DNA of 63,916 nt, counting the filler, from Collodictyon triciliatum (Eukaryota), in NCBI GenBank assembly GCA_043381765.1. It is 8 parts of 8 records of this genome, joined end to end, with 100 filler letters (N's around TTAATTAATTAA, not from the genome) between each part and the next. Parts side by side here need not be neighbours in the genome. Positions count along the whole stretch, not along the records: positions 53,196 to 61,971 come from JBHJMP010003296.1; 7 more parts are not named here. The stretch is one strand, 5' to 3'. Shown piece after piece: positions 5,587-63,778 of this stretch. How positions within the stretch are numbered: the stretch's first letter is position 1; each line of letters begins with the position of its first letter. The notes under the pieces are model-generated. The model was not told the DNA's origin, did no database searches, and saw only the letters and a program-made list of their open reading frames with translations. Position numbers and translations under genes: made by a program.

Positions 5587-8500
5587 TTAGAAATCCACAT
5601 GTTTCAAATTTCCCATCTCTTTCAAATCCATAATCATTTTCTGCCTTTGAAAAAATGGTAAGGCAAAAGAAGCTACAAAAGAAGAGGATAGCCATATCGT
5701 ATTTAGGGTAATCAGTAACACAGTAATCCATGTTTGAGAACCTAAGAGGCTGGATAAGAGGGCGAGAAAAAATGACACGAATATCAAGTATAAACTAGAG
5801 AGTTCCATACGATTGTCAACCTCTGATTTATATGGGAGGTATTTGACCTGCATCCAAATCGACACCTAAATTTAAAATATCAGCAAATTGGGAAATAAAA
5901 TGTTTAGATATACTCTGGAATCAAAAGAAACCTGGATGACAACAACAATCAGCAAAAAGAATATTGACTGGCTTGTGTAAGGAACTACGCTGGTTATAAA
6001 AGAAAATGCTACTCTTCGGGCGATAACAATAAATTCCCAGAATCGAAATCCCTAATTTTATCATATGTTACAATTCAAACGATTACTCTATGCAAACAAA
6101 AAAAAAAAGGATTAATGATTTTTCTGAAAAAAAAAAGCATTATAAAGGAAAAAATGCTACCTCTCTATATGGTTGGTACAAAAACCCATATCGTAACTCT
6201 GATTTATAATCTACTTTGTCTAGCGAGGGTTTAATTTTGCTCCAAATAAACCAAGGAAATCCGATCAAAAATAACACAAATACGGGGATAGATAGCCCCA
6301 ATAAACTTTTGTATTCATTGGAAGCTGGACTGCATTCAATCCACGGCGAGTGATTCAGATACCAAGTTTTGTTGCCTGTGTCATAAATTGTACAACCAAA
6401 AACTCCAAATACCTCTCTCGTGACCGAAAAATAGATGAAAAACAAAAGGTTGGATGTTATAAAGACAACCTATTAATAAAATGGAATGAGGCACTTATAT
6501 AAAGATACACTCAAGCATTGCATCAAGATTTTTCATGGATTATTAATAATTGTATCAAATTACCTTATTCCTCGTATGTTCAGACCCAAAGTTATATAAA
6601 ATGCTCCCCGCAGTTACAAAAATTGGAATCCTCAAGAAACTTAGAGATAAATTATAAAACAAACTGTTAATTCCGAAAGTGCAAGAGACATTTGGAAATT
6701 GAATAGAAGCTGTTGTTGATGATATATCTACAAAGCTATTCGCATCCTCCGACAAGACAAGTCCCGAAGATAATATCGAAAGTGTTTGCAAATGCAACAT
6801 TACAATCCTGAGTTTGGCTGCATATTATGTGATACGTTAGAGAGGATATAGCATCATTTTGCTTTTACATTTTTTTTATAAAAAAAAAAAAGATGTTATA
6901 GAAAAACCTGACTGCGAAGAGTTGGAATTGTAAAGATACATGACGAACATGAGGAAGCCCAAAAGCACTAGAGCGAGAGTTATATATATTGTCGTATTTT
7001 CGCATTTAACGCACGACCTTCCTTGATTTCCGAATCCGCTTTGACACTTCGAACATGCATGGTCTTCATATCCGTCTTCACATAATTTTGACGTGATTGT
7101 TGTCGAATTTGAATTGATTCTTTTCTCTGGAAGAAAAGTTTCACATGATTCAATACGTGGGCAAAGAAGGAGTGACTTCACCTGAACTACATTTGGAGAG
7201 GCATGACAAAATTTCATTGACAACCCATCGACGCACTCACATTCCCTTGGGCACTTTATGCAGTTGTCGCCAAACCCAAAATATCCCGGTAAACATTGAC
7301 AAAATTCATAATCGTAATAGGTAGGGTTCAACTCAACTTTGGTTTCGACTTGACCTGATTTGGAGATGATGGACGGGCAAATGTATAGATTTGACTTATC
7401 TTCTAGATTGAATGGACTTGTGTAGTTCATGAAAGAAGGAAGAAAATTAGCTGTTCCGTGACTTAATAGCGTATTTTTTAGTCGCAAACTTTCAAGTCTA
7501 GTAAATCGTTTGTATGATTCTGGAATGCTCCCAGATATAGGATTTCCAGACAGTTCTAAGTCAGTCCAAACAAGCAGGCTGTCCAATTCACCGAGATTAT
7601 CGATTCGGTTGTTTTTTAGGCTTAGAACTTTCAAGTTTGGGATATATTCAAATAATCTCCAATTTAACTGCCCAGACAAACTGTTGTCATCAAGGAGTAC
7701 ATTCTCGAAAGTTATTTCTCCATAACCAATCATAGGGGATAGGAACAAACCGACGTCACCAGAGAACAGGTTATGTCTCAAATCAATTGTGAGAATATTT
7801 GGTAGATTCCAAAAGAGGGGTGGTAAAGTTCCATAAAATTTGTTATGGGATACAGACAGGTATCTTAAGTGAGTCAAATCTTCAAATATAACCGGTATCA
7901 TTCCCTCTAAATTGTTTCGAGACAAATCGATGTATTGTATGGCTGGGATATTCCAGTCAGACGTGATGGAATCACTTATTTCATTCTCACTAACGTCCAT
8001 TCTTTGCAAATTAGGTAGGGCAAAAGATGGCAAGGAGCCCCCCAAATTGTTTCGGAAAATCAATATCTCTTCGATGAAGGGACAATTTTTGAACAAAGGA
8101 ATATTTCCAGAAAGATAGTTATCATATGATGCAAAAAATTTCAACCTTTTCAGTTTTGAGAACTCTGGGATTGTACCTATGGCATTTTAGATATTCGACT
8201 AAGATGATTTTTTATATTGGGTCTCGATGCGATGAAAAGAAAAAAACTTTACAGAATCTGATCAATTAAAGACACCATTCAGTTTATTTCCTGATACATC
8301 CAATGTTTGCAAAGTGGGCAATAGTGTAAAATCAGGAATACTTCCTAAATGTGTTTTTTTTTTTTTTGGTTATTTGATGCGTTTCTATCAAAAAGTTACA
8401 AGCTTTTATGTATAATTGAACTACCTTTTAAATCATTATTAGAAAGATTGATTAAAATTGATTTTCTAATATTCCTAAAATCAGGTATCGTTCCTATTGA

Positions 8501-8660
8501 ATTTTCAATTTCATTTTCATACTATGTAAGCCGTAGAAATTGATCATTAGAAGTAAATTTAAATATTCGGCATTTAAAACAAAAATCCCACCAGTCAGCT
8601 GGTTACTAGATAAATCTAACGACAGAATATTTTGAATCTTGCCGAAATCAGGGACACTGC
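5587..8660 (-). CDS. LRR + Cys-rich + ~7TM receptor-like protein (paralog A), 5' end cut by contig end
   Basis: Plant-type LxxLxLxxNxLxGxIP repeats (ORF 6876..8144), CxCxPGYFG/CxxC Cys-rich region, then hydrophobic exons (6555-6800, 6140-6445, 5587-5865). Colinear with 55568..60012. Confidence 0.85.
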
Positions 8661-20900: not shown

Positions 20901-21987
20901 GTAAATGAAAGACGAGAGAAGCTAGGTCTCGATTTACTAGCTCGGGATGAAGTCAATGGCCTCGATTACGAAATGTTTATTAAATGTCTTTACCACATTT
21001 TGAATGAAATATTTCCTGATTATAGCAAAGCAGTACAGTTTTCGGCATTGATGACGCAGTACCTTATTCCAAATGTACTACCTATAATGAATAACGATAG
21101 GTTGCAATTAGACATCGAACCCATCGTAGTTTTCCGTATTGGTGATCTGATTCGTCGCATACGAATTCGTCGTAGAAAAATCGTAAAGAAGACGCTATTA
21201 GTTAAGGTTCTGGAGAGATACAATATGAAAAGAATATTAGAATGGACTCAATCGGACAGAAAAGACGATGAGTATGAAAATGAAAATGAAGAGGAAAATG
21301 ATGTTTCTCACATGAGAGATAATGAAATGACGATGGGTAAATCTAAAATTCACTCTCAAAAAAGAAAGGATTGGCAATGGAACGAAGTAGTTTCTGAAAT
21401 TATGAAGAAATTCGAAGAGGCTGACCTATCGACGAAAAAAAATGAACAGGAGATCGGGCATTCCATTACAACGTCTGATGTACTTGCTATCCTGTCCTTA
21501 GTATGGGAACTTGTTTACATATTGAAAATTTCTACTTCCACAAATCAGGGCATTTTTGGTGGATTTCAAAGTAAAGTATCAAGTGTTGTGCGCTTTATCC
21601 TTTTAAAATTAACCGGCTCGTCTTCGAGCACTGACAACGTGAGACAGCCATGTGATGATTTTGGTGAACCCCAGGATAGGGTCTATTTTATTACAGTGGT
21701 CTTTGTTTTCTGCCTGGCCATTATGTATCCTCCTTGTGCATACCCAAGTTACGGTCTTCTTGAAAGTGGAAAAATTGGCAAAAAGGATGGAAGATATGCA
21801 AATTTTAAAGAAAAGGAATTTTATTACCCAATATTCCTTAATGTCTTTGGATCATTGTTTTATATCACTATTCTTCAAGTATTGATATCGACAACTGCGT
21901 GTGCTCTTTGTGATGAGAACGACACAAATAACACGTCCTATCTGATAAGGTTTTCTCCCACTAAAAGTCCCTAATCTACTGGTATTT

Positions 21988-22051
<64 letters not shown>

Positions 22052-26724: not shown

Positions 26725-28722
26725 CTAAGAGTTGGCCGGAATTCTCTGGACAACAACATTTTCTGTAATGAAAAGCATTCGCCTGGGATTCCTTCGGTAA
26801 GTCCACAAAAATCGTGCAAGGAAAACAGCACATGAAAAAGAAGCACTGCTGAACATGCTTCTTGCGGATATGAGAGTGAATCCATACACACGCACATTTC
26901 TTTCGTTCAAGAACATTCGTCCTAGCGAAAACTTACTGGCGATAGAGATGCCGAGCATCCAAACGATGCCGAATTTTGATACGTGCGTCAACTCCCGCCT
27001 AGATAATCTGAACGAATCAATCATCATGCACCAGTAGAAAGCAGCAAGGATGTAGGTAATGTAAACCATTTGAATTCCCCAGTCGCAGATAATACCATAT
27101 GAAATAAATATTTTGATCATGAGATACAATACATACCAGAAATCAAATGAGCGAAACATATGCTTCACAAGAAAGAAGTTACTTGTGAGTATTATTTGTA
27201 CGCTGATAAAAATTGTAGAGATAACTGAGCATGAAACCGTAATCCATGTATAAGAAGCCTTCGTCTGCACTCCAATTATCATCGGAAAAGAAAAGAAATC
27301 GGATATTACCCCCAAGGATATACCACACACTTGGTAGAATTTCGAACGCAAAACCAAAGAAAGGATTGTGAATCTTTGCTTCACTATGATGTGGTATATG
27401 GTATGATTTAGGTTGAATCTCAAAGACTTTTCCACTAGTACTCCCAATACCAGATAATTATCGGTATCGTAATTGTGAATCGAATTGTTTGAGAGGATTT
27501 CATTTTTATCCCCTGCAGGAATTATTGCCTCTGCATTCGCTATAACATCCTTTTTATCTTCTTTTGTTTTCTTGCTTGGCCTGGGCTTCGTATATTCATG
27601 ACTCGAGATATTTACATTCTGATTATCTATTTGAACTTTTGTGGTAGATGCTGATTGAATCTCGTAATAACTAGATATAAACGCTATTTCTCCTTCTTTC
27701 TTCATGATTAAGTGATTATAAATAATTCTTAGAAAGTATATGATGACATTTGCTAAGCTACTTATTGCCCCGTCCCTAAAGTTGATTATTTCAATGTTTA
27801 CCGAATTGTAACTCCATGATTTGATCTCAGGAGTAACAAAGTCCAGTTGAATCGAAAACAATATTATTGAGTAGCACAATATCCCAACTATTGACGATAC
27901 CTTATGTATCGGAATATTTTTGGATGAATGTGCATCGTATAAAAGAAGATTGAACACCAAAGATGCTAGAGAATGGAAAATTGCAAGTGCTGCCTTTAAT
28001 GATGGGCCCATGATAAAGAACAAGCACAGGTGGAATATAAGCATATTAAACATCGTGTACCAGAAGCTGAATGTTTTTGCCAGAGATTTGGCAATATCGA
28101 TTCTTATCATCGTCGAATGACCGATGCAATAGTTGAAAGGCATTACCAGCAAGACAGGCACATAAAAATTGCTAGGAAACAGAACCTCCTTGAACATAAA
28201 AAAGTAAAACATGACGGAGCAAAGGCCCCATATAATTGCCATCGAAAGAGACACCAAGCGATGTCTATAGAATCTGGTTACTATATTACAAGCTCTTCTA
28301 TTTGTTACCATAACAGACAGCAAATTCTTTCTCCTGTGCACGTATGACTTTGTCTCGTAGAGTATGAGCTTAATCCAGGTGATTTTCGGCTCTTGGATTA
28401 TCTCTGTATTCATATCTTGGATGGAGTTGTGTCTTTTTTCTTGGCCCCTTTCTATCGCATCCGCCCTGTCGTTCTCTTGGAGAGGGTTTGTCTCTGTCAT
28501 TGTCCGTGTGGCGTTGGTGCCATCCGCGAGTTGATTATCCCTCACACTTTTTGCATCACTGCCTGCGGGGCTGCAAATATCCGGTGTGGGATGCTGCTTC
28601 ATATTTGGGCGATCTAACCCACCATACGCCGTCTGTGAAGTTTTGTCGGCATCAGCAACAGCAGTCTTTGCAGTGACCTGGATATCATTTGTCCACGCAT
28701 TGTGCAATACCCGACCTTGCAT
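26725..28722 (-). CDS. intronless multi-pass membrane protein with two internal FxFWY repeats
   Basis: Single uninterrupted ORF (first ATG 28722); halves contain KSLAKTFSFWY and KHMFRSFDFWY, each followed by several hydrophobic helices. Confidence 0.8.
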   Translation of the reverse strand: MQGRVLHNAWTNDIQVTAKTAVADADKTSQTAYGGLDRPNMKQHPTPDICSPAGSDAKSVRDNQLADGTNATRTMTETNPLQENDRADAIERGQEKRHNSIQDMNTEIIQEPKITWIKLILYETKSYVHRRKNLLSVMVTNRRACNIVTRFYRHRLVSLSMAIIWGLCSVMFYFFMFKEVLFPSNFYVPVLLVMPFNYCIGHSTMIRIDIAKSLAKTFSFWYTMFNMLIFHLCLFFIMGPSLKAALAIFHSLASLVFNLLLYDAHSSKNIPIHKVSSIVGILCYSIILFSIQLDFVTPEIKSWSYNSVNIEIINFRDGAISSLANVIIYFLRIIYNHLIMKKEGEIAFISSYYEIQSASTTKVQIDNQNVNISSHEYTKPRPSKKTKEDKKDVIANAEAIIPAGDKNEILSNNSIHNYDTDNYLVLGVLVEKSLRFNLNHTIYHIIVKQRFTILSLVLRSKFYQVCGISLGVISDFFSFPMIIGVQTKASYTWITVSCSVISTIFISVQIILTSNFFLVKHMFRSFDFWYVLYLMIKIFISYGIICDWGIQMVYITYILAAFYWCMMIDSFRLSRRELTHVSKFGIVWMLGISIASKFSLGRMFLNERNVRVYGFTLISARSMFSSASFSCAVFLARFLWTYRRNPRRMLFITENVVVQRIPANS

Positions 28723-29309
28723 TTTCTGTGTATGTGTGGTTTGGTTAGGTTGTGTGAGGTGGACATCTATCCTCAACCTATGTCTCTTGCTATATGTTTG
28801 GTTCCAACACAAAACATCTTGGTAATGCGCGTATTTTATCGTCTGCTGCTTGTCAGATTTTGGGAGAAAGAGGTCGCACTTTGCAGATCAAATCTTGCCT
28901 ATCAAAAAAAGCGTCTGATTTGGCAATCTGCCAACCTTCCTCGGTCTATGGTAACTTACACATTCCCTTAAATCACCGAATGGATTTGTCTCGTTCAGTG
29001 TAATTATTCCACATATGTATTTTAACGTTTTCCGTTGAAACGAATCAAACGCGCCCCTTTTTTTCAATCTTTGCCCCCAATCAGCCTGATCACATCAGCA
29101 ACTCAACACAGTCACATACCTCGCATCACTGACACCTCAAGAGAGAGGGAAATAGAGTCTATGCAAAGAAACGCGGTGAATAACCCTGTACCTTACAATG
29201 TCCGTGGATTCTTCCAGGAACAAGAGGAAGTCTAGCGCCACCAAATCAAGAGTGTCTGTAGACGAGACCTTGCGCCTGACCCGAGGAAAGCAGTGGCAAA
29301 GAAACAAAC

Positions 29310-35910: not shown

Positions 35911-38479
<2,569 letters not shown>

Positions 38480-38921
38480 ATCGCAGGGCTCGGACACACG
38501 CATTTGCAAAGGTGGCGAAGTGAAGCGGCTTTGCCTTTTCCACCAACTACTTGCCTTTTTTTTCTTCTTCCTTTCCCTCCAACCCTTTTCTTCTTATTCT
38601 CTCCCTCAAACGCCTTCCTCGCCTCTCACCACCGACCCCAAGTGTCGCGGATTATTAAACCCACACAGGCCCGGTCATTGTCGCTCAGCCGCACCCCTTT
38701 CGAATCCACGGCGCTCAGAACGCTCCCTCGCTCGACCGATTGAACACATCGCAGGGCAGAATAAACTCAGAGAAGAACGGTTGCTCAGTCGAGGCACAAA
38801 CTCGAACAAGTTTAATGGGGGTTGAGCATGACTTTATTATTATTGTTTTTTTTTTTTAAAAAAAAAGTATAAGAATACTTTGATATGAGAACAGACAGAC
38901 ACAACACCAGAGAAACATGTC

Positions 38922-41600
38922 CTACATCTTCGAGACGATTCTTTTCTGGTGCCCCATGGACGATGACTGCGTCGCGTTGGACACGCTCTCCACCAGCCGC
39001 GCAAGAGACGGAGGCGCCTGCAGTAACTGCAACAGAGCGCGCAAGTCGTCTGAATCGTTGTATATGTGGAAGGAGATGCGGAGATACAGCGCCCCGTAGA
39101 GGAGTTTGACAGGAACTTCAATGCGGCCGATGTAGTGGAGATAGTCTTGGATGAGCTTGGCGTGCTCCGAGCGAAACGCGTTTGCAGGATATGGAGATTG
39201 ACAAGCTTCCATGATGGCGCGGGTGCGGTCCTCCGGGATGGCGAGACATGCCATCCACCCACACCGAGCCAGGGGTACAAGCCATGTTGTGTTGAGCCCC
39301 GCTCGCAGAATGCGGTCGGCCTCCAGCTTCAAATCCTCGATGTATCTTCGCACAACGTCAACGCCCAATCCAGTCCAGAAGCGCATGGCTGCGGATAGAG
39401 ACAGGGCACTGCTATAGTCCCTGGTTCCGTCCCAGATGAACTCGCTCAGGAAGCCCTCGTGATACCTGGTGGGTAGTAGGTCGTGAAGTGATGAACTTGT
39501 ATCTTTATGTGTGTGTGTAGTATGTATGTATGTATGTATGTATGTATGTATGTATGTATGTATGTATGTATGTATGTATGTATGTATGTATGTATGTATG
39601 TATGTATGTATGTATGTGTTTAGGCTGTAGCGCTGGCTCCCGCTCTACTTTGTCCTTGATGGTACAGGTTGGGATTGTGAATCATTTACCCGTGTGATGC
39701 CAGAACATGATGCAAGGATGGCTGTAACTCTTTTTTGACGTACAGCAAGCCGACGCCCTATCGATTTTATGCATACAATCTTACAAATTCAGGGCTATGA
39801 GGAATTTTGGTGTACAATTAATACGTTTGTTTGTTCACGTAGAGATTAAATTACAGTCTTATTTATTTATTTTTTGTTTTGTTTTTGGAACAGTGATAAG
39901 CGCAAGTGCTTGTGAGGAACTCGAAAAAGAGTGAAATAAACCTTTGCAGAACAAAACCATTTATGACAGTTTGTAATGTAGTAGTCCGCTCCGAGTTCTT
40001 CGAGATTTAGTGTCGTGCTTAACAACCCATGGGCACCATCGATTAAAACCTCAATCCCATGCTCATGACACAACTCAATCAGTTCTTTGATGGGCAGTAC
40101 CACAGCTAAGAAAATGCCGGTAAATTAATGAGTATTGATTACAGCTAATTGTACCTAGACTTAGTTTAGTGTCTATCGATAGGTAATAGTTTTCATGGTT
40201 TTTTTTCTTCCTTTTTGATAAAGGCACGCTTTATCCAACGTTTTTAAACCTGTGTTGCTTGTGACATGATCAAATACGGCTAGACGGCACTTGTGTGGTA
40301 AATTGTTTCTCACAAACTCTAAGATTGTATCTTCTCGAGCCAAACTGTTAAAGTTGATTTCATTTTCTAAGCGATATATTTCCGTACTTAAATTATTCCA
40401 AGAAAAAAAATATATGAAACGAATGGGATGAAGAAGAAAATAAGAAACACTAACAAACAGAAAAGCTGAGCAGAATAATTGAGGAGAAATATCCAATTTA
40501 GTTTCATCATAGTATTTTATAAACATTACACTATTTATTCGCCAGTGAGTCATGACGAAAGAGTTCATGCTTTGTACAGGAGAAGAAGAGAAAGGAGAAT
40601 AGATAGACATCTCTACCTTTGAAGAGGTATATTGCCTTCGATATATTCTGCATTCTTGGAGCGACAGGTGAGCTTTAAGAGCTTTTTAAGAGATCCGTAG
40701 GACACGTCTAAGGCGAAAACCGAATCTCCTTCTGCCAATTGAACAGAACTGACGTATTTGTACACAAGATTACACAGCAACATGCAGTAGACCAAGCACA
40801 TTGATTCTCAAAGGAATGCATATTGAAAGGATTACGTTTTAAAAAAAAAACATACAAAAATATGAATCAAAGTACGAAAAATAAACAGATAAAAAAAGAT
40901 AGACAGATAGATAATAATTATCAGCGGCTACCTAATGACGGCATTGAAACCACTGGTTGCATTCTGCACAAAAACAATGTTTTGCGGATCTGAGCCAACA
41001 AATGAACTGATTTCTCGCAGACTGCGGACCATGTGTGGGAAAAGCTTCCGGTCAATCATGCGCAGCGGCTGCTCCTCTGTGTAGACGCGCCAGCGCTCGG
41101 CAAGGGCCATGACGGGCTTCAAAGAAGCTCCAAAAGCGCCGTGGTTCAGGAAAGTGTAGGACTGGTCCAGGAGGAAATGCTTTGCCAGCCCTTTTTTCCC
41201 CCACTCGCCAACCACCTGTTTGAAAAGTAACGTCTTGATGTTCAGTTCCCACTCGTGGCGGTCGGGCAGTATCTTCTTTTTTGTTCCTTATTTACTGCAG
41301 TTATCGACTTATTTTGTTCTGCCTATTTCCCAAGATGACAAAAAACAAAGATATGCTTTTTCGTTAACAGATGAAGACGCGAATCATACTGTTTACAAGG
41401 ATATAGAGAAAAAAGAATACATGGCAGGGGTCGTCCTCTATCCACTCAAAGGGCAAACTAGGAGGGACATATAAACTCTTTGGAATTTTTATCAGGTCTT
41501 CGACATTATCTGAGTGGAAGGAGCCAAAACCCTTGTATTGCGACCCGCCCGCAAGGGATTCGACCCAGGCTTTTGCATCAGGGGCTAACGGCTGATCCAT
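38922..41600 (-). CDS. class V PLP-dependent lyase (Egt2/L-cysteine desulfhydrase/isopenicillin N epimerase family), multi-exon
   Basis: FLNHGAFGA; FVQNATSG; FDHVTSNT; LIDGAHG; YYITNCHKWFCSAK (PLP lysine); FIWDGTRDYSA; YLRISFHIYN. Confidence 0.88.
39521..39617. repeat. (TATG)n microsatellite, intronic
   Basis: Directly visible. Confidence 0.95.
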
Positions 41601-45036: not shown

Positions 45037-47118
45037 ATGAACGCAGTGTCGATTTATGTCCAAGCGTTTTACTCGGTCAGTGGAAACTTTGAAGCTTCTC
45101 TGTCTGCTCTTCTGCCAATCCTCTCTGGGTTCGATGCACACGCAAAGGTTTATACATAACTTGTCCGTCGCATAGAAAGATTTTCTTTTTCCTATATTCG
45201 ATCCATTGCATAGATAGATGTTCTTTTTTTTAAAAAAAAAAGAAAATAAAAAAGGGGATGGAATCCTGTTTTACCGCCATTGTATCTTTAAATGTTTTAA
45301 ATAAGCTTTGTTGATGTTTTCAAATGTTTTATTTACATTTTGAAGCATGCAGACATTAGTACAATAGGCTGATTTTGTATGATATGTACAAAGATATTGC
45401 ATCCGTGCTGACTCTTTTCTTTTTTCTTTTNNNNNNNNNNNNNNNNNNNNNNNNNNNNNNNNNNNNNNNNNNNNNNNNNNNNNNNNNNNNNNNNNNNNNN
45501 NNNNNNNNNNNNNNNNNNNNNNNNNCTTTTTCTTTTTCTTTTTCTTTTCTGCTCCTTCTGCCTTCTTCCTATCTGCTTCTGCTTTCAATATCTATCTCAC
45601 ACATCTCATTGTTAATGAATATGCGGGTCAATCACTATTTAGGTATCTGAATTATTTTCTGCCATTGACGAAACTGTAATAGCCCAAATCAAGACGTTGT
45701 TTGCAATCAACTACGCCTTTGAGACTTCCATCATCGGACAAGTACTCAAATCGATCATAGACAGCGATAGACTTTGTTTTGTGTCCAATTAAAAAAACAA
45801 TACATTTGACGTCTTATCCAACTAGATTGGACAAGAATCTATAAGTCCCAATTTTATACTCACTAATACAATTTACATCCACCCAAAAATCATCCAACAG
45901 TTGAAGAGAGTAGAAAGTAGAGCCAAGAAGATTTATGGGAATGAAGAATATCGCATCATGCATTCAAAAATTCTCTTGGAAAAAACGTTTTCTCTACGGA
46001 AACCGTCCAAAATACGCGGTACACCTTTTGGAACCATAACAAAGAATCGCCTCGAGACAATCAAAAATGAAGTAGGACGTATTCCGTACACTTTACCTGC
46101 AAAATACAGGATACCTGGCGAAATAAAGACGTGTTTTTCCTTCAAATTACTGGAAAACCTCAAAATATCTTTCAAAGATGAAGCAAGCTGCATGCTAGCG
46201 ACAAGAAAAACAATTAAGGAGCTCGCCTTTGCTGATATTCCTATAGACTCATATGGCAGGTGGGTTTATTCCGGATTTTGGAGCATTCCTCGGACAATCG
46301 ATTCTCTGGCCGGACCTAAACGTAAGGTTGGAAGTCGAGGCTCAGGAGACGAGCAATTCAGTCGGCCTTTCGGAATAGCGATTTCCCCGGTTAACGGCAA
46401 CATATATATCGCAGATGCAAGAAATGGGCGAATTCAAATCATATCCCCAGACTTGACCTTTCTTTCACGTTTTGGAGAGCAAGGCATAGGCCCAGGTCAA
46501 CTGATGGATCCATCCGGCGTGGGGTTTTCATTAGACGGATCTACATTGGTTGTAGTTGACCAAGGAAACCACCGAATTCATCTCTATACGCACGAAGGAG
46601 TTCTCATCCGCACAATAGGTGCCCAGGGGCATGAAGCGTATCAATTCAATAGACCTTACTTTGCTTCATTTGACCAAGAAAATAATTTCTATGTAAGTGA
46701 TTACCGAAATGAAAGGGTTCAAAAGTTTAGCGTGGATGGAGAGTTCATTCAATCAATAGGCAATGAAGCAAATGCAAGTGCAACCGTTGGTATGGTTTGT
46801 GGAATGATGATAAATGATGCCAACGAGCTGATGACTATTTCAAATCCGGGGAGTATCGTCAAGGTGTGGTCTACAGACGGAACTTTCTTGCGTGAGTATC
46901 ATGTGGAGACCACGATGAACTTGGATAATTACCTTGGGCGCAGTGTCGATGGTGGCTTTATTCTTACAGACTACGGAGGAAACAAGGTGACATTCTACTC
47001 TTCAAATGGGGAAAAGCTCCAGCAATTTCAGTTTCCTGGTCCTGTTGGAGCCGAGTTTGATTCACAGGGGCGTTTGTATCTCCCGTGTTGGAGCGAGTCC
47101 TACTTTACTGTTTGGTAG
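45037..47118 (+). CDS. NHL-repeat beta-propeller protein with unknown N-terminal region, about 3 exons
   Basis: GSRGSGDEQFSRPFGIAIS..IYIADARNGRIQII; GPGQLMDPSGV..VVVDQGNHRIHLY; QFNRPY..YVSDYRNERVQKF. Upstream in-frame exons at 45037-45147 and 45643-45741. Confidence 0.88.
45431..45525. other. internal scaffold gap (95 N, no stop linker)
   Basis: N run flanked by TTTTTC repeats inside the NHL gene's first intron. Confidence 0.9.
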
Positions 47119-50900: not shown

Positions 50901-52942
50901 CATATCGCTAAAAGTAGAAGATAGAAATATTTTGAGTTCTCTTTTCTCTTGGACGATTGGTCTCATGGAATCTTTGACAGTTCTATTCCCCTGAAAATTC
51001 TCAACTAAGGAATTAGTGGGAAGTTTGTAGTCCTTGTATTGATATTGTCGTATAATACACCCGTTTGTACAAAGAAAGGCTTCCATACTGGGGTTCCAGT
51101 CAATTTTTTGTTGTAAACCGCATTTGAATATATAAAGATTCATTCCTCGTTGTTCGTAGGGAAGACGCTTCATGCACTCTGGGCATGCGATACCCTCTGA
51201 AATGGGCTTCTCATTGTAAATTTTAGTAAATATTTCGCTTACCAGAGTTTTGACAGCAGATAATGTGCACAAATTCTTTTTCGTTTTGATTTTGATAACT
51301 ATCTTTTGACATAATGGAAATCGAACAACTGAAGTGGAATCCTGCTTGATTAATTAGATGTGAATAAGAATATTTTTTTTTATGAAATCGGTACTTATCA
51401 TATTACTAGTAGTTCAAGGTTGATTAATGAATAAAAGATTAATAAACTTACCGTTTTGTTACTAAAAAAACGTATAAAGATGTCAAAATCACTCCCAGAA
51501 GATATTTCAGCTCCTTCTTGACTGCCTTTGATTGAAATAGGAAACACCAAGACACTTCTACTCAAGAATATTCCGTCGTAACTATTTCCACCAGTGTTTA
51601 TTCCAAGAAGTGTAATTATTCGTACGAGAATTCTGCTGAATGCAGTTTTTGGAATAGTCGACGTATATTGTATCACATAGCTAATAGACTCTACATCTTC
51701 TGCGCTCTCAAGCCATTTTCCACTAGGTATGTCATCATTATCTGGTATGAGAAGGGGGAACAACTCTATATTTCCGTGACGAAATGAAAGTCCAAATGAT
51801 CGGAATGTGTCAATTACTATTTCAGCAAACTCGTTTTTCTTTGAGTCGAGACTGTCTCTCGGAAGTGATTCTTTCACCTGAGCTATCAAAGTTGTATACT
51901 GAAAAACTCCTGGATTGATATCAGATAACTCCAAGTAGTTGAAGGTAAAAATTGATCGGAAAGCCCTTATAAGGATTTCGGGTTCAACAAAAATGATCTT
52001 CTCTAATCCGTTCCTGTTATGCCAAGCTATGGCTCCGTTATCATTCAGGAAACAAAGTGCTGACCTTGTTTCACTTGCACTCATGGTATAGTTCTCTTGG
52101 CAAAAGGCTTCGATATCTTGCAAAGAAATCCATAGAATATCTTTTAATCTTTGGGTTTCAAAGTATTCCTTCAATTTGTTATATTTACCAGGAATCAGCT
52201 TACCAACATGAGGCATCTTTACGATTATTTTATTTATTGTGGATTTCAGGGTTTCGATTCCTTCACCAGTTTTATTACTCACCGCAAAATGACCAGAAAT
52301 ATGTATAATATTTCCATATTTTGAACAAATTCTTGAGTATTCTCGATTACATTCTTCCTGGACCTTAATGAGGTCTTCTTGGGGCACATCATCAAGGCGA
52401 GTGCCAACAATCAGGACGAATGCATTGGTACAGTTGTAAGAAACCATTTCGAGCCATTCATAAACGTCATTCATGAGAGGAATGCTGAGCATCGAGTAAA
52501 CGATGACAAGCAAGCATCCTTGTGTCAGGAAAAATGGGTGGGTGGCGTGGAAAATATCTTGTCCACCAAAATCCCATATCTTTGCGGAAACAATGGGTCT
52601 TGATAATGATAGTGATATTTTTGATTTCTCTATTTCTATTCCGGCGGTTCTTTCTCTATTTGCAATTAGAGTGCTGTAGAATCCACCTGTGATAGATGTG
52701 TCTTGCAATAGAGATTTTCGCAGCGTAGTTTTCCCTGTTTCTCCAGCACCAAGAAGCATTATCCGTCCTTCAGACCACAAGACATTCTCTTTTTCTAGTA
52801 GTTGTGAGTAAAGAAAGTAGAATAAAGCTTCACTTCCGCGCTTTAGAACTGCTTGTGGAACTGTCTCAATCGAGTTCGACTTATATTTGAGACCTTTGGC
52901 CAACTTTGGTAGGTAACCAAGAACTTCGGGGACATGTCTGAA
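47984..52942 (-). CDS. ROCO protein: (LRR)-Roc GTPase-COR-Cys cluster-DUF4062-like-unknown C-terminal domain, 5' end missing
   Basis: P-loop LLGAGETGKTTL; RTAGIEI; IWDFGGQDIFHATHPFFLT; IVGTRLD; VSNKTGEGI; COR ALCFLNDNGAI, FPLLIP, IPKTAFSRILVR; then KIFLSSTFSDM, ADLRWGV, CLDEV, FLGSRFGWIP, SATEFEI. Confidence 0.88.
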
Positions 52943-53520: not shown

Positions 53521-55567
53521 AAACTCTGTTGGAATCATCATGCCTTTTTCCTTGAACCAATGGAAAGGCAGGTAGTTTTTCTTTTTCTTTTTTTCTTTTG
53601 GTGGTTTCATTAGCAAAACTCGATCATAGGCGCAATTATAAAACATAACTATGCTAAACGTGTTCCCTGTGTGTATAAAAAAATATTTTTATGGTTGTCA
53701 TTCCTTTTCGAAAGATCAAAGGCCTTTTGCTGTTAAACTTGACTGACTCCAGACATGGAACCAGAAAAAAACATGTAAGTTCACAGGGTTAAGAATAATA
53801 TGAAGCATGATTGAAAGGAGAACAGAAAACAAAAAATGGTTACTTTTTTTTAAAAAATTCATATTGGTGTATTATTTTATCTTTCATTCAAAAAGGGGAT
53901 CTCTTGTTGGTTTTGTGTTAATGCTATAGCAGGCTTCGCCTTTTCATAATTTGTTTCGAAGTAGACGTACAGGAAGCAATATGTACAAGAATTGCAGCTC
54001 TGTAAAAATATTTAAGCTATTTACGATAATAATACCATTTGATCAATTAATCCGAAACGCGTCCATTCTTAATCGTAACACTACCTCTTAGTGTGGTTTA
54101 TTCTCCAACGGATCCAATAAGAGTGTGTCGATTCCTACATCATAAATGTCATAAATCTGACCACTTTTGACTGGCCGCAGCAAGTCTTTTTTTATTCAAA
54201 AAATCTTAGCTGTTGAGCCCGTCTCAACAATCACAGGCCGTAGCAAGTTCAGTTAAAATGCATCTCAGTTAACTTAAACGCTCGTGCGCATCTGAGTTTT
54301 GGTTTCATGTATTTGTAGGTGGAATTAACTTAAAATCTACATAAATAGTTCCTTGGAGCATCGGGGATAGATTCGATAAGTTAAGTAATTCTTATGGATC
54401 GAAGACCCTCCTAATCTGAAGTTTTGGAACTTTATATTTTCATATGACTGGTAAACCACACAAAACAAAGCATAAAATATGATATTAGCCATTATTATAA
54501 AATATGTTATTTTAATATTTTCATCTCATTTTTAAAAAAAAATTTTTGATTAATTAAATGCCATTTTTCGAAAGTGTGTAATCTTACCATAGATATTAAT
54601 CTTACACAAATGAACAGATTGATCTATGTACGAAAAGGATAGAAATTGTAAATCTTAAAGTATTTTTATTCATATTGAAGTCTATTGACTCACCTGTTTT
54701 ATTTGATGAAATCAATTCCGCGAATAGATGTTTCCCCCGTCTTTTTTCAATGGCTTTTAATAATAAGGGCGGATGCTTCTTTTTCATATCTTAGCCAAAT
54801 TATCAAATTATATCCATATAGTTTGAAGAGTTATATCACAAATAGTAAAAAAAAAAAAAAAAACAAATTAATCTGACTTTGTATAAATCGTTTTGATATG
54901 ATCATATTCCATGGTGTAAGAAATCAATCCAAGAATCCGAGATAACAAGATATATATTCTCTTTAATACGATTTATTACTATCTGATATAACTTCATCCA
55001 CATAAGAAAAATTATCTAATCATAATCGAGGGAATTAATGAATAAATTCAAGCTAAATGCTATATTTAAAGACTTGATAATAATGAGAAGAATTACACAT
55101 ATTCTGTTCTTTAGATACTTGAATTACATGGACTCAAAAATCCACCTTTTACCCATCGCTTCATTTTAAAGCAAAATGAAATCAAAAATATAAAATAGCA
55201 TCTTCTGTTCATAAAAAATAATTATTTATATTCTTTTCAGAGAATGTTTTATTGGTGCATAATTGTAAACCTAGTAGATAAAATGACAATAATTCAAATT
55301 GAACGACTATGTGTTGAACAAAAAATCAGTTATTCGCGTAGTAAAAAGTGAATTTTTTTAAATATATTCGATGTAACTAAAAAAATTAAAATCAGAATGT
55401 TATCAAATGTATCAATTAATAATTCATGGAATATAAAATAAATATTTATATTGTTTATCTGTATTGATTATTGAATTATATTTTTGCGGGATTTGTAAAA
55501 AAAAATTGAAATAAGAGGTTAACTATTGATAATCGTTTGATGGAAAACTTGAAAACATAGGTGCTTC

Positions 55568-58500
55568 ATGATAAAGCGAGCGATATCTTTCCTTTTTCTC
55601 CTCTTGGTTTTATCTGACTCAGTACAGTCAACAAATAGGTTATTTTTAACAATCATGCTCTACCTATTCTACTTTTTCTTAAACTTAATAATTAATAGAT
55701 ATACTTGCCGTTACACCAGAGATGAATTGACCACCATGAAAATCGATGATGCATTCCAAATACTTTTAATGCTATATGAAGATTACTGTCCTTCAACTCA
55801 AGCTGATATCATGAAGAATGTGGATGGGGAATGCTCTTATCTGGATGAGAATGCTATTCACGGAGCAATTTACGAGACAAATTACAAGGAAGAAAATTAT
55901 GAAAACAAAGAATTTTTCATACATCCGAAGAAAATTGCAACAAATATGGACAAGGCGTCAGCAAATAACGTGTTGAATGCATATTTGATTCAAAATCAAT
56001 CTGAGCTTCTCATCGAACTTTACAACCTACTTGACGGAGATAATTGGACTGATAATAGAGACTGGAAAGATAGCACTGTTCCAATTTGTCGGTGGTACGG
56101 GGTAAGGTGTGATATGGATTGCCCTGATGAAGATTTGGAGGTAAGGGATAACAAAAATTATACCTGTTTCATGATAATTACTAACTTTATGAAAATAGAA
56201 CAATAGTTGTCCAGTTGTTGGAATGATTATGCCCATGAATAATCTTCGTGGTGATTTTGGACCCGTCTCTTCTGTATTCGAGCAGCTCCCCTTTCTAACT
56301 CTGCTTGATTTGAGTTTAAATTCAATTTATGGCAGCCTACCAGACCTAAATCTTCCAAATTTCTCTCATTTCAATATGTATGATAATCAAATAAGTGGTG
56401 CAATACCAGACTTTCAAAGAATTCCGAATATTGAGAGTCTTGAAATTGATGAGAACATGTTAGAAGGCACTGTGCCTGATTTTTCAGGAACGCCGTTACT
56501 AAAAATTCTGTGGGTTGGTTCGAGTGAAAAGTTGACAGGTTTGATAAAATATGTATAATTATTTATTCATTAAAAAATTATCAGAGATTCACATTTATCA
56601 TCATATTACACGTAAGGCACTTTACCAAATTTTTCGGGATTACCAAATGCTCAAGTCATTGGTATATATGGAAGTCGCATTCATGGTTTGATATAGATAT
56701 TCATAAACTTCTTAATTCATAAATGTATTCCATAATTAACGTCAAGCTGAATAGCCAAACATATTTCTTTCCGATGAAATCCCAGGGACTGTTCCTGATT
56801 TTTCAAATGTACAAAATTTGTATGTTCTCACCCTAACAAGCAATGAGTTTCATGGTTAGTAAGAAATTGTGAGAAACATACTGCACGATATTGGTTTTAA
56901 CTTTATTGTTTAATTTTACTAGGCCATCTTCCAAATTTTAGTCAAATACCAAGAGTTTTATATCTTTACCTTTACAACAATTTGCTTAATGGTAAGTTTA
57001 TACAGAAAAGATTATTTTTGTATCTCTTAAAAAAAATAATGATGAAAGAACGATTTTCACTCAGGAACGATTCCAAATTTCAGTAATGCTCGCAGTCTGA
57101 TATGGTTGGGATTATCTAATAATCTTCTATTAGGTAGGATTTTAATGTATATTCATAACTGGATATTCAACACTATTAAAATAAAATTAAAACGTAGGAA
57201 CAATTCCTGACTTTAGTGAAACAAACCAATTGGAGATGATTTATCTCGATGGAAATCATCTTTATGGTACATATTTTTACATTTTATCCAAAGGAATTAC
57301 AATAAATACAAATTCTATGTCAGGAACAATACCTGGATTTCAGCAAGTCTTCAATTTGGTTTCCATTTATATTTCTGGCAATGAATTGGAAGGTAAATAA
57401 TCGTTTGGGTAATCTGAAACGAACGTATCACTTTTAAAATTGTACTTTTTCAGGGACCACTCCAGAATTCCAACAATTTTTGAAACTGGAACATTTATCT
57501 GCTTACGACAATCACATCAAAGGAGCAGTTCCGAGTTTTGAAAGCTGCCCTACTTTAAAAGAGATCGTGCTCTATAGAAACCATTTGAGTGGCACCCTTC
57601 CAACATTCAAGCTACCTATGTTATGGAATTTGGATCTTAGTGAAAATGGTATCACCGGCTCTATTCAACATGATTGGCAGATTGATTCGATTGAATACAT
57701 TGACTTATCCAGAAACAGAATGAATGGAACTATCCCAAATGTGTTTGAAAACTTACCCCAGTTGAAATCAATAACTCTGTCACATAACCAATTTTCGGGA
57801 GCTATGCCCATCAAATTTTGGAATCAGGATAGCTTGATATCGATTGACTTGAGAAACAACTCCTTTTCAGGAGATGTTGGTGTTTTCATAGTGACTCCCT
57901 CAGGAAATTATGATTACAATTATGAGAGTCTTGTACTTGACCACAACCGGCTCCATGGTGTTTTTAATTGGAGAATATTTAACAATTTACTGAAGGTAAA
58001 AAAACTAAGTCTTCAAAACAACCAGATCAAGGGACTTGACGAAGTTACAAACTTACTTCAATGGAACTCGCTTGACTTGTCTGGAAATCCGATAGTTGGG
58101 GCAATACCTGAATCATTTAGTAAATTTTCGAAACTTGAATATCTAGGACTGAAAAATACGTCTTTGCACCATGGAAACTTCAACTTCCTTCCCGATTTCA
58201 TGGACTTCACAGACCCCTTTAATTTGGAAGATGAATCGAAGCTCTACATCTGCCCCTCTATTATTTCTAGATCTGGTTTGGTTGAATTGGATATTGCCTT
58301 AAATCCGGAATACTACGACTACGAATTTTGCAAATGTTTGCCTGGGTACATAGGATTTGGATACACATGCGTCCAGTGCCCACAGGACTGCGAATGCCCA
58401 GACGGTAAAACTTTGAAAGGTTGTCACGCTTCGCCTTATGTGACATCTATAAAATCAATTATTCTTTGCCCACAACCGGAATCATGCAAAACTTCGATTC

Positions 58501-60012
58501 CGAGTAAAATTTCAAAGTCGAACAAGACCATCATCATCGATGAATTATGCGAAAAAGGATATGAGAGTCGCGCATGCTCTAAATGCCAAGATGGCTACGG
58601 CAGCCGGGGAAGAACTTGCGTCAAGTGTGAAAACATGGAAACCTATTTTACTTTGACTCTCAGCTTTATTGTATTTTGGTCTTTTGTAATCCATTTATTT
58701 CGCTCAGAAACATCGAAATCAGGTTAGTGATATTATGACGTAGTATTCAAAGCTGACATCTAATATATACTTTTGATTTAGCTAAGCTAAGAATCATCAT
58801 GTTTCACATGCAAACACTTTCGATCGTCTCTTCTGGGCTCGTTAAGTCTGAAAATGCAAGTTACTTTCTCGACATTTCTTCATCGATAGGTTCGATTCAA
58901 TTTCCCAATGTATCATGTGCACTTGGAGAGCTAGGTATGTTTTATTCCCTCCTGATTAGTTATGGACGGATACCCCTTTTTACAATTGCTGGCTCAGCTG
59001 CGTATTATTTGGGGTATGGGCATAAGCAGGATAAGGTAATAAAGTAATTGTTGATTTGGTTATTGTGTCTGTATTAAATAAGCTAATTTGAAACCTTGTA
59101 TACGCTAGGCTGTTTTTATTGCCCTGAATCTTCTATTCTTCATTTACTACTCGGTTGCAAGGGACGTCTTTGGCGTTTTTGGATGCACTGTATATGATGA
59201 CGGAGAAAGTGTTTGGTTTTTGAATTACGCACCATGGATTAGGTGCAGCCCGGCATCTGACGAATATCTGAATTTGGTTGCATTGTCAGTCCCAGTTTTG
59301 GTTTTCTTCCTGGTTGGATTTCCAGTTTTTGTTTGGTGGAAAGTGAAAATAATGTTCAATAGACCTGGATACGAGTCAGAAGCGCGATATGGATTTCTAT
59401 ACTTGCCATATAAAGAGGTATAATGTGTTTCTCGAACTAATGAAAGCATCTTAATTCCTTAAAAACACATGATGCCTTTGGATAAGGCACTGTACTAACA
59501 ATCTCCTTTAGAACTTCAAGTACTGGGAGTTTGTCGTCATCGCTCGTCGAATCGCCTTTTCATTCATCCTTAGTGTCATTCCGTACACAAGTCCATCTGT
59601 TTTTTTCCTTCTCCTTGTGGTCGTTATTCAGGTTTGGAAGCAAAGCATTTTCCTTTATGATTGCTGGGAGAGAATTTTTATATCGGTTCTAAAAATGTAC
59701 GGTTATATGCAGGGTTCAATTTGGATGCAAAAAGAGTACATGCCATACAACTCGAAAATTGAAAATCAAATGGAACTTTCCAGTTTGTATATTATTTTTG
59801 TGTCGTTCTTTCTAGTCCTTATTTCGACCTTACTCGGGTCTCAATCCTGGATTACTGTTTTGTTGATTGGAATGAACTCAGTGTGGCTGCTCTACTATGC
59901 AAGCATGGCATTTATCATTCCCCTCTTCAGGAGCAACACAATCAAGAGGGGTCTATTCAAAATGAAAAGTTTGACTAAAAGAGCACAATTACATGACCCT
60001 CTGCTGGATTGA
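55568..60012 (+). CDS. LRR + Cys-rich + ~7TM receptor-like protein (paralog B), apparently complete
   Basis: Signal peptide; LRR N-cap LYNLLDGDNW..W...ICRWYGVRC; roughly 20 LRRs; CKCLPGYIG Cys-rich region; TM module with FGC..LNYAPWIRC, RYGFLYLPYK, YWEFVVIARR, PY...ENQME; stop TGA 60010-60012. Confidence 0.9.
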
Positions 60013-60169
60013 AGGAGGATTTCAGATCCAAAATAAAGAAAAAAGCGAATTATATAACTAGAACATCTACCTATAATTTCAAAATTTGTAAAAATTCGAT
60101 TGAACAAATGCATCTATGTATATTATTACTTGGTTTACCTTGAGCCACATATGATTTGTTGGTTTCTTT

Positions 60170-61971
60170 TTAACAGTTCATGGAAAGACAACAAAGGTGA
60201 TATACCGTCTTCGCCTCTGAGACAAGAAATGAGCTGTGGACGAGACAGTGGAAAACCCCGGATTGTGTGGTTGGAGTTTTTGTGTTTTGGATGGAAGGAA
60301 AAGGAAAGAAAAAGAAAAAACAAGATAGAAAGGAGAGAAAGTGTTCACACGCAGACTATTCTATCCGAGGTGAATCAGCTCCAACGCGATTTCAGGTTGT
60401 GTTCGAGACTGACAGAAGAGCGGATAAAGTTGTCGAGTCGATGAAAGTACGCACATGGCCGTTACTTCGATAAGCGATTTCGACGAGTCCTTTCAACCGT
60501 CTATCTCAGACAAGGTTTACATCCTATTTCATTCCACAGGATGAGTCTTTTGAGGAGACAACGGGTCACTTTCCTTGCGTTTCTTGCTGGGCGACTCTGA
60601 CAAAAAGCGATACATCGTTGTTTGTCTGGAATTATCAGAAGTGGCGCTTGACCGTCCCCTGGCATCGGGACCATGCGTAGCCGGCAGTGGACTTTGCTTA
60701 ACCGGAGCATGGGTACGCGTTTGTGGTTTTAGAAACATACGCTCCTGCTTGCTCGGACTGTCTTTGGTGTGGAGTTCCAAGCTTGGATTCGACTTGTGGT
60801 GTTTGCTCTTGCTCCTTGGTTCTCGGTGCGACGGTCTGGAGCAGGATAAACGGACTATCTTTGGTGGGCGCTGGTTCTTGTGTTGCCTTCGCTTTGGAGT
60901 ATCCTTTCGGATAAGTAACGAAGACTGCCTTGAGGCCTTCTATGTTAACCATATTCACGTCAGTCTGAATGGGTAGTTTAAGGGGGGATTTCTTTCGGGG
61001 TTTGGAGATGCGCTGCTCTTGGGTCTTGTGATGTGCTGACTTGTCCAGCGTTGGCGGTGGAGGGCTCGAGTGCGAAGATTCTGAAGAGGAACCGAGATTT
61101 CCTTCCATGTCATCGTCGCTGTCGCTGAGTGCGCGTATCTGCTGTGAGTCATGTGGACTCTGTTGTTGCCGGGCCTTGGCTTCCTTGACCCCGTTGCTGC
61201 TTGTCTGCTTGGCGGGTGTATTCTATTGCGGGGTTTTGCTTTTCATTCGCTTTTCGCGGCTGGCGGACGCTCTTTGAGGATGCGCTTTAGACACTTTTTA
61301 CTCATGACCGTAAACTTTGCAGAGAGCTGGTACTTATGGCAATGAAGCTTCACCACGGCCGTGTCTGTGAAGAAGCCTTTGTCCTTTTTGATCTCCACAT
61401 GGGTCGGTCTGAACGGCTCCAGCTCCTCACGAAGGTGTTGCGGCCACACGTCCAGCGGTAGTTGGTAGATCATCACCGAGGTCTCTGTTGGTTTACTTTT
61501 GCTGAAGCTGATCGTAATATCGATCAAACTTACCTGCCTCAGTTCTAGAAGCTTTCCGGTGTTTTCTGCAGTGCGGAAGGCAATCAGGCAAAGGCCTTCG
61601 CTGTTCGGTAAGCGCAATTGGATGGACTCTTCCCAAAGTTTGTTCGCTTTCAAGAAGGAGGCGAGCGCATCTGTTAGCCTGCGGGCCTTGTTCTTGTTAT
61701 AAACGACTTGCTCGACCCCGTGCAAAAATACTGTCCGATCAGACAGACTTGCAGGCGGCTTCCTTGCACGGGTCTTCCTAGACTTACGTGCAACTCGGGG
61801 TTTTTCCGCGCCAGTGTTGGAACCAGAAGAGCTGGCTGCAACTTGCAAAGCCTTCGACGGGTCGCGGCTTGCGCCGATCTCCCCGTCTCGGCTCGTGTTT
61901 TCCATCAGGCGCGGGAAGCTTGATTGAAAATCAGGCGCGGGAAGCTTGATTGAAAATCAGGCGCGTGATTG
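60170..61971 (-). mobile_element. putative degenerate non-LTR retrotransposon 5' portion (ORF1-like, RRM-like) with 5' tandem repeats
   Basis: Intronless GC-richer block; ORF 61243..61905 has TVFLHGV and SVMIYQLPLDVWPQHLREELEPF (ORF1 RRM-like), followed by a stop/frameshift-broken S/P/K-rich continuation. Confidence 0.5.
61905..61971. repeat. 26-bp tandem repeat TCAGGCGCGGGAAGCTTGATTGAAAA
   Basis: Exact copies at 61905-61930 and 61931-61956, then an internally deleted third copy running into the contig end. Confidence 0.92.
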
Positions 61972-62071
61972 NNNNNNNNNNNNNNNNNNNNNNNNNNNNN
62001 NNNNNNNNNNNNNNNTTAATTAATTAANNNNNNNNNNNNNNNNNNNNNNNNNNNNNNNNNNNNNNNNNNNN

Positions 62072-62577: not shown

Positions 62578-63778
62578 GATAACATACCACAAGGGTCTAT
62601 GAATCTCATGCTAACATCCGTGAAAGAAGTATCCACATCTGATCAAACATTTTGCATGGAACTTATAACCAACCAACGCTCATATCTCCTCCAAGTTTGT
62701 AATATAATTAACAGCCTTTCATTACTGAAGAAAAAAAAAGTAATTTTACGTTTTCCTATCAAGCAAATCATAATTGATCATAATGAAAAAGGCTGAGAGT
62801 CCACAGGAGCTGAGAGAGTGGATTTCCGTGATTCAAAACTGTACCACAACACTCTTGGAGGCTCAAATGATTGCAAACAGCCCAGAAACTAGCGATGTGT
62901 ATGTGCTGATTTCCATGATTTTTGAATAAAACTCATTCGGTGCTTTCTTTCCGTTGTAACTCTATACCCCAAATGCATTGCTATCAACCAGAAATGACCC
63001 ATTAACTGCGCTCTGGTCGTGCAATCCAAAAAATCGAGAATGTGCAGACTGTGGTTCTCCAGGTTTGTTTCATTTAATATTGAGTGGGTTTCTTTTCATA
63101 TAATGCAAGGAATTACCAAAGCATAAAGACTCTAATTGAGCTAGAAATACTCCCCATTTTATTTGCTCCTTTTATATACACAATCTACTCCTCACCATTG
63201 TCCCGTCAATATGACAGACCCTGAATGGGCCTCCATAAACCTTGGTATCCTGCTATGTATCGGATGTTCGGGTATTCACCGCAGTCTTGGTGTACACGTT
63301 TCGAAAGTCAGATCGCTCACGCTTGACAGATGTGACAACAATCTGCTGAATGTGATTGACTCGCTTTCACAATATTGATATTGTGTCCTGTGGAAAAGAT
63401 GATACCAAGTACTTTTTTTTTTTTTTTTATAAACTCTCTTTATTACTTGTTCGAATAGTATATGAAGGCAATCGGGAATCAATTTGCAAATTCCGTCTGG
63501 GAGTCTAGCACTACCGTGAGATTGTCTTTAACCACAGAACAGTACGTATAGCATGAAACGCCAGCACAAAACAAATTATTGCAAATAAAAAAAATAATTG
63601 TACCTAAATAAATTCAAGTATATAATAAGTTATTTAGAGCTTGAAAGTAAAACATATAACCGTATAACCGTATAATTGCTATACTACCAGACCGTCCAAG
63701 CAGACATACATTCAAGAAAAGTATGCATCAAAAAAGTTTGTGTCCAAGTACCATGGCTCCCAGGAAGAACTAGACGAG
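62578..63778 (+). CDS. PH + ArfGAP protein (ACAP/centaurin-like), internal fragment
   Basis: PH end [92 protein letters not shown]. Confidence 0.88.

Follow-up and report, generated by a model that had tools for sequence, protein, structure and literature searches.

A tandem array of six one-repeat exons in a leucine-rich-repeat gene of Collodictyon triciliatum

Analysis of a 63,916-nt stretch of Collodictyon triciliatum DNA (eight parts of eight records of assembly GCA_043381765.1, joined end to end with N filler; hereafter the window, in whose coordinates all positions are given) identified a plus-strand gene at 55568-60012, within record JBHJMP010003296.1, in which six successive leucine-rich repeats (LRRs) are each encoded by an exon of their own. 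These six exons, hereafter cassettes, are all exactly 69 nt long, with AG before and GT after, and with the G supplied by the upstream exon they give a stop-free translation into six 23-residue LRRs. Coordinates and translation thus confirm the observation of six one-LRR exons made in the original prediction, and the six differing beta-strand strings listed there were all recovered. The array is probably old and constitutively spliced, the product of tandem exon duplication, and lies in the zone where its protein family gains and loses repeats.

Exon anatomy and RNA evidence

The seven introns that bound the array (56539-56616, 56686-56785, 56855-56922, 56992-57064, 57134-57197, 57267-57323 and 57393-57453) are 57-100 nt long with a GC content of 19-30%. 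Every one of them is in phase 1 and splits a GGN glycine codon, as had been proposed. Five of the seven have a length that is not a multiple of three and read-through of four leads to an in-frame stop, so splicing is needed for an open frame. The sole array intron that could be retained in frame is 57267-57323 (57 nt, a multiple of three and open), whose retention would add 19 residues. By eye, donor and acceptor sequences of the cassettes resemble those of the other introns of the gene. The further claim that cassettes can be removed, added or exchanged without frameshift is formally true, each cassette being 1-1 symmetric and its 23 codons amounting to one turn of the solenoid.

A unit profile was built from nine one-LRR exons (the six cassettes and three exons of a paralog in the window) and run on the six-frame translation of the window. 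Its own nine exons scored 36.9-44.9 bits, a fit that holds by construction. The next best scores were 22.0, 15.8 and 14.0 bits, all within the multi-LRR exons of the focal gene, and nothing further in the six frames of the whole window exceeded 8.7 bits. This gap between the nine one-LRR exons and the rest argues that the array is genuine and more than a product of chance. A looser search by regular expression, which gave chance matches elsewhere too, was set aside in favour of the profile scan.

Joining of open frames through GT..AG sites produced a gene model of 14 exons (Table 1) with a product of about 1172 residues, which comprises, in order, a signal peptide-like N-terminus, an LRRNT_2 cap, about 20 plant-type LRRs, a 15-cysteine stalk and a multi-pass membrane domain. 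The putative first intron (55639-55698; 60 nt, phase 2, GT..AG) removes a hydrophobic, AT-rich insert that is absent from homologs, and its retention would yield a product of 1192 residues. In Pfam searches, LRRNT_2 (PF08263) matched residues 142-182 of the product of 55568-56140 with 25.6 bits against a cut-off of 20.7, and the large exon matched LRR_8 (5.6e-20), LRR_1 (1.2e-18) and LRR_4 (4e-18) as well as, weakly, DUF7630; weaker LRR matches were found in exon 3. About 20 repeats opening with glycine (G-T/S-I/V-P-x-F) could be counted by eye, some 4-5 in exon 3, six in the single exons and about 10 in the large exon, so that single-exon LRRs make up 6 of about 20 in the gene. As the original prediction had it, the LRRs on either side of the array share long exons with other repeats; the upstream exon has 340 nt and the downstream one 1269 nt. 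Downstream of the LRRs, the 15-cysteine stretch is followed by a run of hydrophobic helices. No protein kinase family was matched in the six exon products scanned with Pfam, which covered all exons except the six of 69 nt, and no Roc or COR match was found in the exons of the gene.

Table 1. Exons of the focal gene and position of its paralog in the window
Feature	Position	Strand	Basis or remark
Exon 1, start codon and signal-peptide-like N-terminus	55568..55638	+	Open from ATG; exon end inferred
Exon 2, N-terminal region and LRRNT_2 cap	55699..56140	+	Donor 56141 seen as X2 RNA joint
Exon 3 (340 nt), first ~4-5 LRRs, phase-1 end	56199..56538	+	Pfam LRR_4/LRR_1/LRR_8; X2 joint 56538/56617
Cassette 1, 69-nt one-LRR exon, phase 1-1	56617..56685	+	Acceptor seen as RNA joint; 41.4 bits
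Cassette 2, 69-nt one-LRR exon, phase 1-1	56786..56854	+	44.9 bits
Cassette 3, 69-nt one-LRR exon, phase 1-1	56923..56991	+	40.5 bits
Cassette 4, 69-nt one-LRR exon, phase 1-1	57065..57133	+	41.3 bits
Cassette 5, 69-nt one-LRR exon, phase 1-1	57198..57266	+	42.6 bits
Cassette 6, 69-nt one-LRR exon, phase 1-1	57324..57392	+	41.9 bits
Large exon (1269 nt), ~10 LRRs, 15-Cys stalk, first membrane helix	57454..58722	+	Pfam, homology, Cys count
Multi-pass membrane domain and stop, four exons	58782-59035, 59109-59417, 59512-59631, 59713-60012	+	Four GT..AG RNA joints
Paralog: three 69-nt phase-1 one-LRR exons (8660-8592, 8493-8425, 8344-8276), large exon from 8176, membrane-domain exons	5605..8660	-

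RNA-like contigs were available from two public runs of related organisms, X1 and X2, which differ from the window by about 1-9% where aligned; a third run, X3, aligned nowhere. X1 and X2 are not recorded as RNA and were treated as cDNA by their behaviour (spliced joints, poly-A and cDNA-adapter-like ends). Six GT..AG joints fitting the gene model were obtained, at 56141-56198, 56539-56616, 58723-58781, 59036-59108, 59418-59511 and 59632-59712, the last being an 81-nt intron that had not been predicted beforehand. The contigs back one of the seven cassette-bounding introns, 56539-56616 before cassette 1. The depth bins 56732-57039 and 57194-57347 were empty in the three runs, and about 20 letters (57064-57083) fell in the bin between them. 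One further X1 joint, from 56654 to 57064, had non-canonical GT..CA ends and about 40 plus 20 aligned letters altogether, the shorter side having just 20, and was judged to be a partial match of a paralogous contig. On exons 1 and 2 (window 55500-56250), an X1 contig carried joints with CT..AC ends that skip 55854-56026 and 56123-56184; such joints are as expected from a spliced opposite-strand transcript, and there may be antisense RNA at the 5' end of the focal gene. This antisense contig is the only one over the putative intron 55639-55698, which therefore has no RNA backing.

The paralog and the Diphylleia homologs

A minus-strand paralog in the window bears on the stability of the array layout. 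The paralog has at least three one-LRR exons, placed directly before a large exon; this exon and its focal counterpart start with the same repeat and are 53% identical. By tblastn the paralog is 48.6% identical over focal residues 396-952 (an alignment segment that runs through an intron) and 62% identical over residues 951-1053, the latter piece coinciding exactly with one focal downstream exon. Presence of the same layout in a paralog of only 48.6-62% identity indicates that the layout has outlived a long divergence. The 5' part of the paralog is absent (window 5605-8880); immediately upstream the sequence passes into an (ATT)n run, two N runs and unrelated DNA of higher GC content, and the paralog may be a truncated copy or reflect an assembly break.

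The cassettes themselves are well diverged, with 41-57% nucleotide identity and 30-48% residue identity in pairwise comparison. Mean identity among units of the array, at 8.6 of 23 residues, is only slightly above that to the flanking units, at 6.9 of 23. None of the 21 pairs of array-bounding introns aligns better than the maximum of 100 shuffles.

A search with the large exon returned 2573 matches, the best seven of which are EukProt Trinity products. Each aligns with 98-100% of the large exon, at 37-42% identity in six cases and 29% in the seventh. Cluster look-up assigned these seven and two more matches to Diphylleia rotans. The next matches are plant LRR receptor-like proteins and bacterial LRR proteins, in which only about half of the large exon is aligned. 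Global alignment of the focal product with six Diphylleia homologs extends from end to end at 36-41% identity. In these alignments all LRR-region indels of at least 5 residues are confined to positions 243-494 of the focal product. Many, though not all, have lengths close to multiples of 23 residues (23, 46, 68, 92 and 183). The remaining LRRs further on, the stalk and the membrane domain run collinear with the Diphylleia homologs, save for an 8-residue indel at residue 799.

Truncated Diphylleia isoforms allowed intron positions to be compared. Nine of ten such isoforms diverge at focal intron positions (residue 191 in one, 950/951 in one, 1053 in five and 1093 in two), and in each of them the residue after the divergence point is Val, as expected if a retained GT... 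is translated. Among the focal introns seen in this way are that at 56141, retained at the same position in Diphylleia P0132, and those of the membrane domain, whose positions coincide with retained-intron isoforms. The tenth isoform diverges after the LRR-border glycine corresponding to focal residue 511, which lies within the large exon, at a place without an intron in the focal gene. Introns at repeat borders are thus present in some relatives and absent from others. Two more isoforms, judged by eye, start in unrelated sequence, read as retained introns, and join the protein exactly at an LRR glycine. Among the 51 Diphylleia isoforms of 14 multi-member clusters, no loss of a whole LRR was seen; the count leaves out five bacterial cluster members of 54-55 residues and one member that is not from Diphylleia.

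Alternative readings of the array

Under the favoured reading, tandem duplication of an exon-plus-intron unit would have made the array, each copy inheriting the phase-1 intron in the glycine codon that opens the repeat. Such symmetric units would have let repeats be gained and lost without frameshift over the evolution of the family, and elsewhere in the gene the repeat-border introns would have been lost or never gained. Because symmetric units can change in number without frameshift, this history would explain why differences in LRR number are found mainly in and around the array zone.

Several points weigh against this reading. Constitutive splicing of the focal array is an assumption, and six of its seven junctions rest on frame, splice signals and LRR periodicity and are to that extent predictions. 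The Trinity assemblies, which come from another organism, have little power to reveal rare isoforms. Within one Trinity gene, P0295 has exactly one LRR unit exchanged relative to P0152 and P0294 (22 residues for 23, residues 709-731). The one-LRR units of the paralog, moreover, do not line up with the focal cassettes in a simple order: the second (p2, 8493-8425) best matches cassette 4 with 13 of 23 residues identical, the first (p1) best matches cassette 2 with 11 of 23, tied with a flanking unit of exon 3, and the third (p3) reaches nothing above 9 of 23. This arrangement hints weakly at turnover of cassettes.

The alternative that survives best, itself unlikely, is a working cassette system in which the 69-nt exons are skipped or mutually exclusive, giving several LRR surfaces per gene. 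Six equal-length, mutually homologous and 1-1 symmetric exons are the precondition for it, and P0295 and P0152 differ by a whole LRR unit amid near-identical sequence, the 700 upstream residues being identical. Mutually exclusive exons would produce such a replacement, as would a recent exon swap (allele or paralog); P0295 and P0152 also differ by two substitutions in the next-but-one repeat, which favours an allele or paralog over pure splicing. The only other internal difference in the LRR region, a 12-residue deletion in P0121, starts at an LRR glycine as an alternative 3' splice site would give. There are precedents: one-LRR exons of brown-algal ROCO genes are reported to be alternatively spliced (Teng 2024, PMC11378527), and in human nucleotide-binding LRR receptors (NLRs) exonic LRR modularity is described as a precondition for alternative splicing (PMC6642158). 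Against cassette splicing stand the absence of whole-LRR loss from all 51 Diphylleia isoforms, the further substitutions in P0295, and the ordinary appearance of the cassette donors and acceptors.

The original prediction had combined this precondition with a variable ligand-binding surface. What stands of that proposal is the symmetry of the exons, the steps of about 23 residues in LRR number among homologs and the single isoform pair; the diverged cassettes, the stable layout and the 51 isoforms speak the other way. The LRR surface presumably binds a ligand. The evidence against an active diversity system at the focal locus is stronger than the evidence for it. Also unlikely is a wider proposal for the CRuMs lineage, to which the Diphylleia relatives belong, namely that LRR plus TRP-like surface proteins would vary their binding surface through exchanged or alternative single-LRR exons. 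If true, receptor diversification by cassettes would have been invented independently in a lineage other than brown algae, ciliates and animals, with the Diphylleia one-LRR isoform pair as its first trace and the six symmetric exons as its substrate.

Ongoing exon shuffling by recombination within or between LRR loci, as proposed for Ectocarpus ROCO genes, we regard as improbable. Its attractions are that exon borders lie at the glycine of GxxPxx..., like those of the Ectocarpus type I LRR exon (PMC3341825), that two family members occur within one 64-kb window, that cassette order is not simply collinear between focal gene and paralog, and that LRR number varies in the array zone across the family. 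In Ectocarpus, "highly dynamic" shuffling was recognised by two marks: LRR exons that lie within introns as relics or in inverted orientation, and pairs of genes that are near-identical but have scrambled LRR domains (PMC3341825). No such mark was found at the focal locus. On both strands of the window, the profile scan revealed no relic or inverted LRR exon within or near the introns, which are too short, at 57-100 nt, to leave room for one. No near-identical pair exists among the six cassettes, whose nucleotide identity is at most 57%. The comparison that could reveal a recent duplicate involves a single paralog, which lacks its 5' part and is 48.6-62% identical throughout rather than identical outside a scrambled LRR domain.

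An artefact or dead gene, in which the 69-nt pieces would not be real exons of an expressed gene, is very improbable: six of seven cassette junctions lack RNA evidence and the paralog is truncated by repeats and gaps, but an open frame of 1172 codons requires these splices, the product can be aligned with the Diphylleia proteins over its full length, and six other junctions, including the cassette 1 acceptor, are present in polyadenylated RNA contigs of related organisms.

Family, known systems and neighbouring genes

Beyond Diphylleia, the cysteine-rich-plus-membrane module is widespread. An HMMER scan with a short family member, P0150, retrieved 1392 proteins at E <= 1e-3, of which 226 also reached E <= 1e-10. 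Sampling of 28 distant relatives of P0150 showed LRR families in 25 and the family PF06011 ('TRP') at E <= 1e-5 in five, four of them above the 28.5-bit cut-off; one of the five is a Planoprotostelium protein annotated merely as leucine-rich repeat-containing. Among Protein Atlas neighbours, PF06011 is present in 12% of members. Members of PF06011 include the yeast Flc and fission-yeast Pkd2 proteins. In the focal family itself the best E value against PF06011 was 0.41, in one of 11 members, and the focal exons gave no match. A search for shorter relatives of the membrane part returned two matches, both EukProt Trinity products, and a metagenome scan for genomic loci of relatives gave 129 stretches matching the pattern, none of which was confirmed by tblastn.

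For the membrane domain, family and structure searches gave no clear match and no fold assignment. The last four exons have no direct Pfam family match. The AlphaFold2 model of P0150 is confident (predicted local distance difference test 89.7, predicted template modelling score 0.86), and Foldseek against the PDB yielded no match at E <= 0.001. VIA-align over 48,161 chains reached a best Z of 6.8, for a designed helical protein, with none at Z >= 8. Both structure searches used the whole 576-residue P0150 model and not the membrane domain alone. As a lead only, the focal membrane domain may be distantly related to the TRP-like PF06011. Judged by domain order and homology, the focal gene is a predicted member of a broad, uncharacterised class of protist surface proteins that combine an LRR ectodomain, a cysteine-rich stalk and a multi-pass domain. 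No description of Diphylleia leucine-rich-repeat proteins was found in the literature searched.

Arrays with a single repeat in each exon are a classic starting point from which repeat proteins can lengthen and vary, and in brown algae they have been put forward as a source of diversity in candidate immune receptors. An unstudied protist family adds an independent example, with another exon length and phase and with an LRR ectodomain fused to a multi-pass membrane domain. What the focal locus chiefly records is the change of repeat number within the family; it does not present a new mechanism.

The original prediction had pointed to brown algae, and the principle of one repeat per exon is indeed shared with them. 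Ectocarpus and other brown-algal ROCO and further LRR genes have one LRR per 72-nt exon (Zambounis 2012, PMC3341825), and the LRR exons are in phase 2, with alternative transcripts combining exons differently (Teng 2024, PMC11378527). Common to both systems are one plant-type LRR per exon, uniform length and phase within an array, exon starts at the glycine of GxxPxx, and a proposed role in diversifying a ligand-binding surface. The precedent does not extend to exon length, phase or gene family: the focal exons are of 69 nt in phase 1 as opposed to 72 nt in phase 2 (PMC11378527), and the focal array is partial (6 of about 20 LRRs), has no relic, inverted or near-identical exons and is not joined to a Roc-COR domain. 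A separate ROCO-type GTPase gene lies 2.6 kb upstream of the LRR gene, where a 514-residue minus-strand frame (51398-52942) matches Roc (1.6e-16) and COR-A; the 1.7 kb upstream of that frame, broken by N runs and simple repeats, showed no LRR exon on inspection by eye.

Tetrahymena LRR genes carry arrays of 90-bp exons in phase 2, encoding a 30-residue repeat, in thousands of young genes (Xiong 2019, PMC6564038). Tetrahymena and the focal gene have in common tandem LRR exons of equal length with one intron phase throughout, a pattern attributed to clonal exon duplication, whereas the focal exons are of 69 nt and in phase 1 and their copies are old and diverged. In vertebrates, LRR units likewise map to in-phase exons, in gonadotropin (glycoprotein-hormone) receptors as cited in PMC11378527 and in human NLRs, the LRRs of which are described as strictly exon-modular (PMC6642158). 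The vertebrate genes belong to other LRR classes, phases and receptor types and offer no homology beyond the repeat.

Ectodomains of plant receptor-like proteins and receptor-like kinases resemble the focal product in their LRRNT_2 cap and 23-24-residue repeats of the LxxLxLxxNxLxGxIP type, and both are among the matches. They differ in that the focal gene has neither a kinase nor a single-pass anchor and instead encodes a cysteine-rich stalk and a multi-pass domain, and identity is just 26-33% over about half of the query. Plant SERK-type kinases have one LRR per exon. For PF06011 proteins, the likeness consists of the four of 28 sampled distant relatives that pass the cut-off in the part aligned with the focal family, which itself has no such match.

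The rest of the window contains several further features. The window is AT-rich: GC content ranges from 29% to 53% in 2-kb windows and is 34% around the array; 711 N are present in the window. GC-rich islands (46-53% versus a background of about 33%) are located at 11000-14000, 36000-40000 and 60100-62000, and may represent mobile elements, transferred genes or compositional domains. The first contains a GH16-like frame at 12557-12976 (Pfam 3.6e-05), the second a repetitive Gly/Gln-rich frame at 37634-38479, and the third a 237-residue minus-strand frame with no Pfam match. Very long open frames of 351-720 residues each, with abundant hydrophobic segments and no Pfam family, occupy 17736-23234 (plus strand) and 26725-28887 (minus strand) and are predicted to encode large multi-pass membrane proteins. 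At 62900-63400 on the plus strand, exon pieces with a C-x2-C ... C-x2-C ArfGAP-like zinc-finger motif after PH-like sequence were recognised by eye. A single plus-strand frame of 430 residues at 45826-47118 encodes NHL repeats (3.6e-15).

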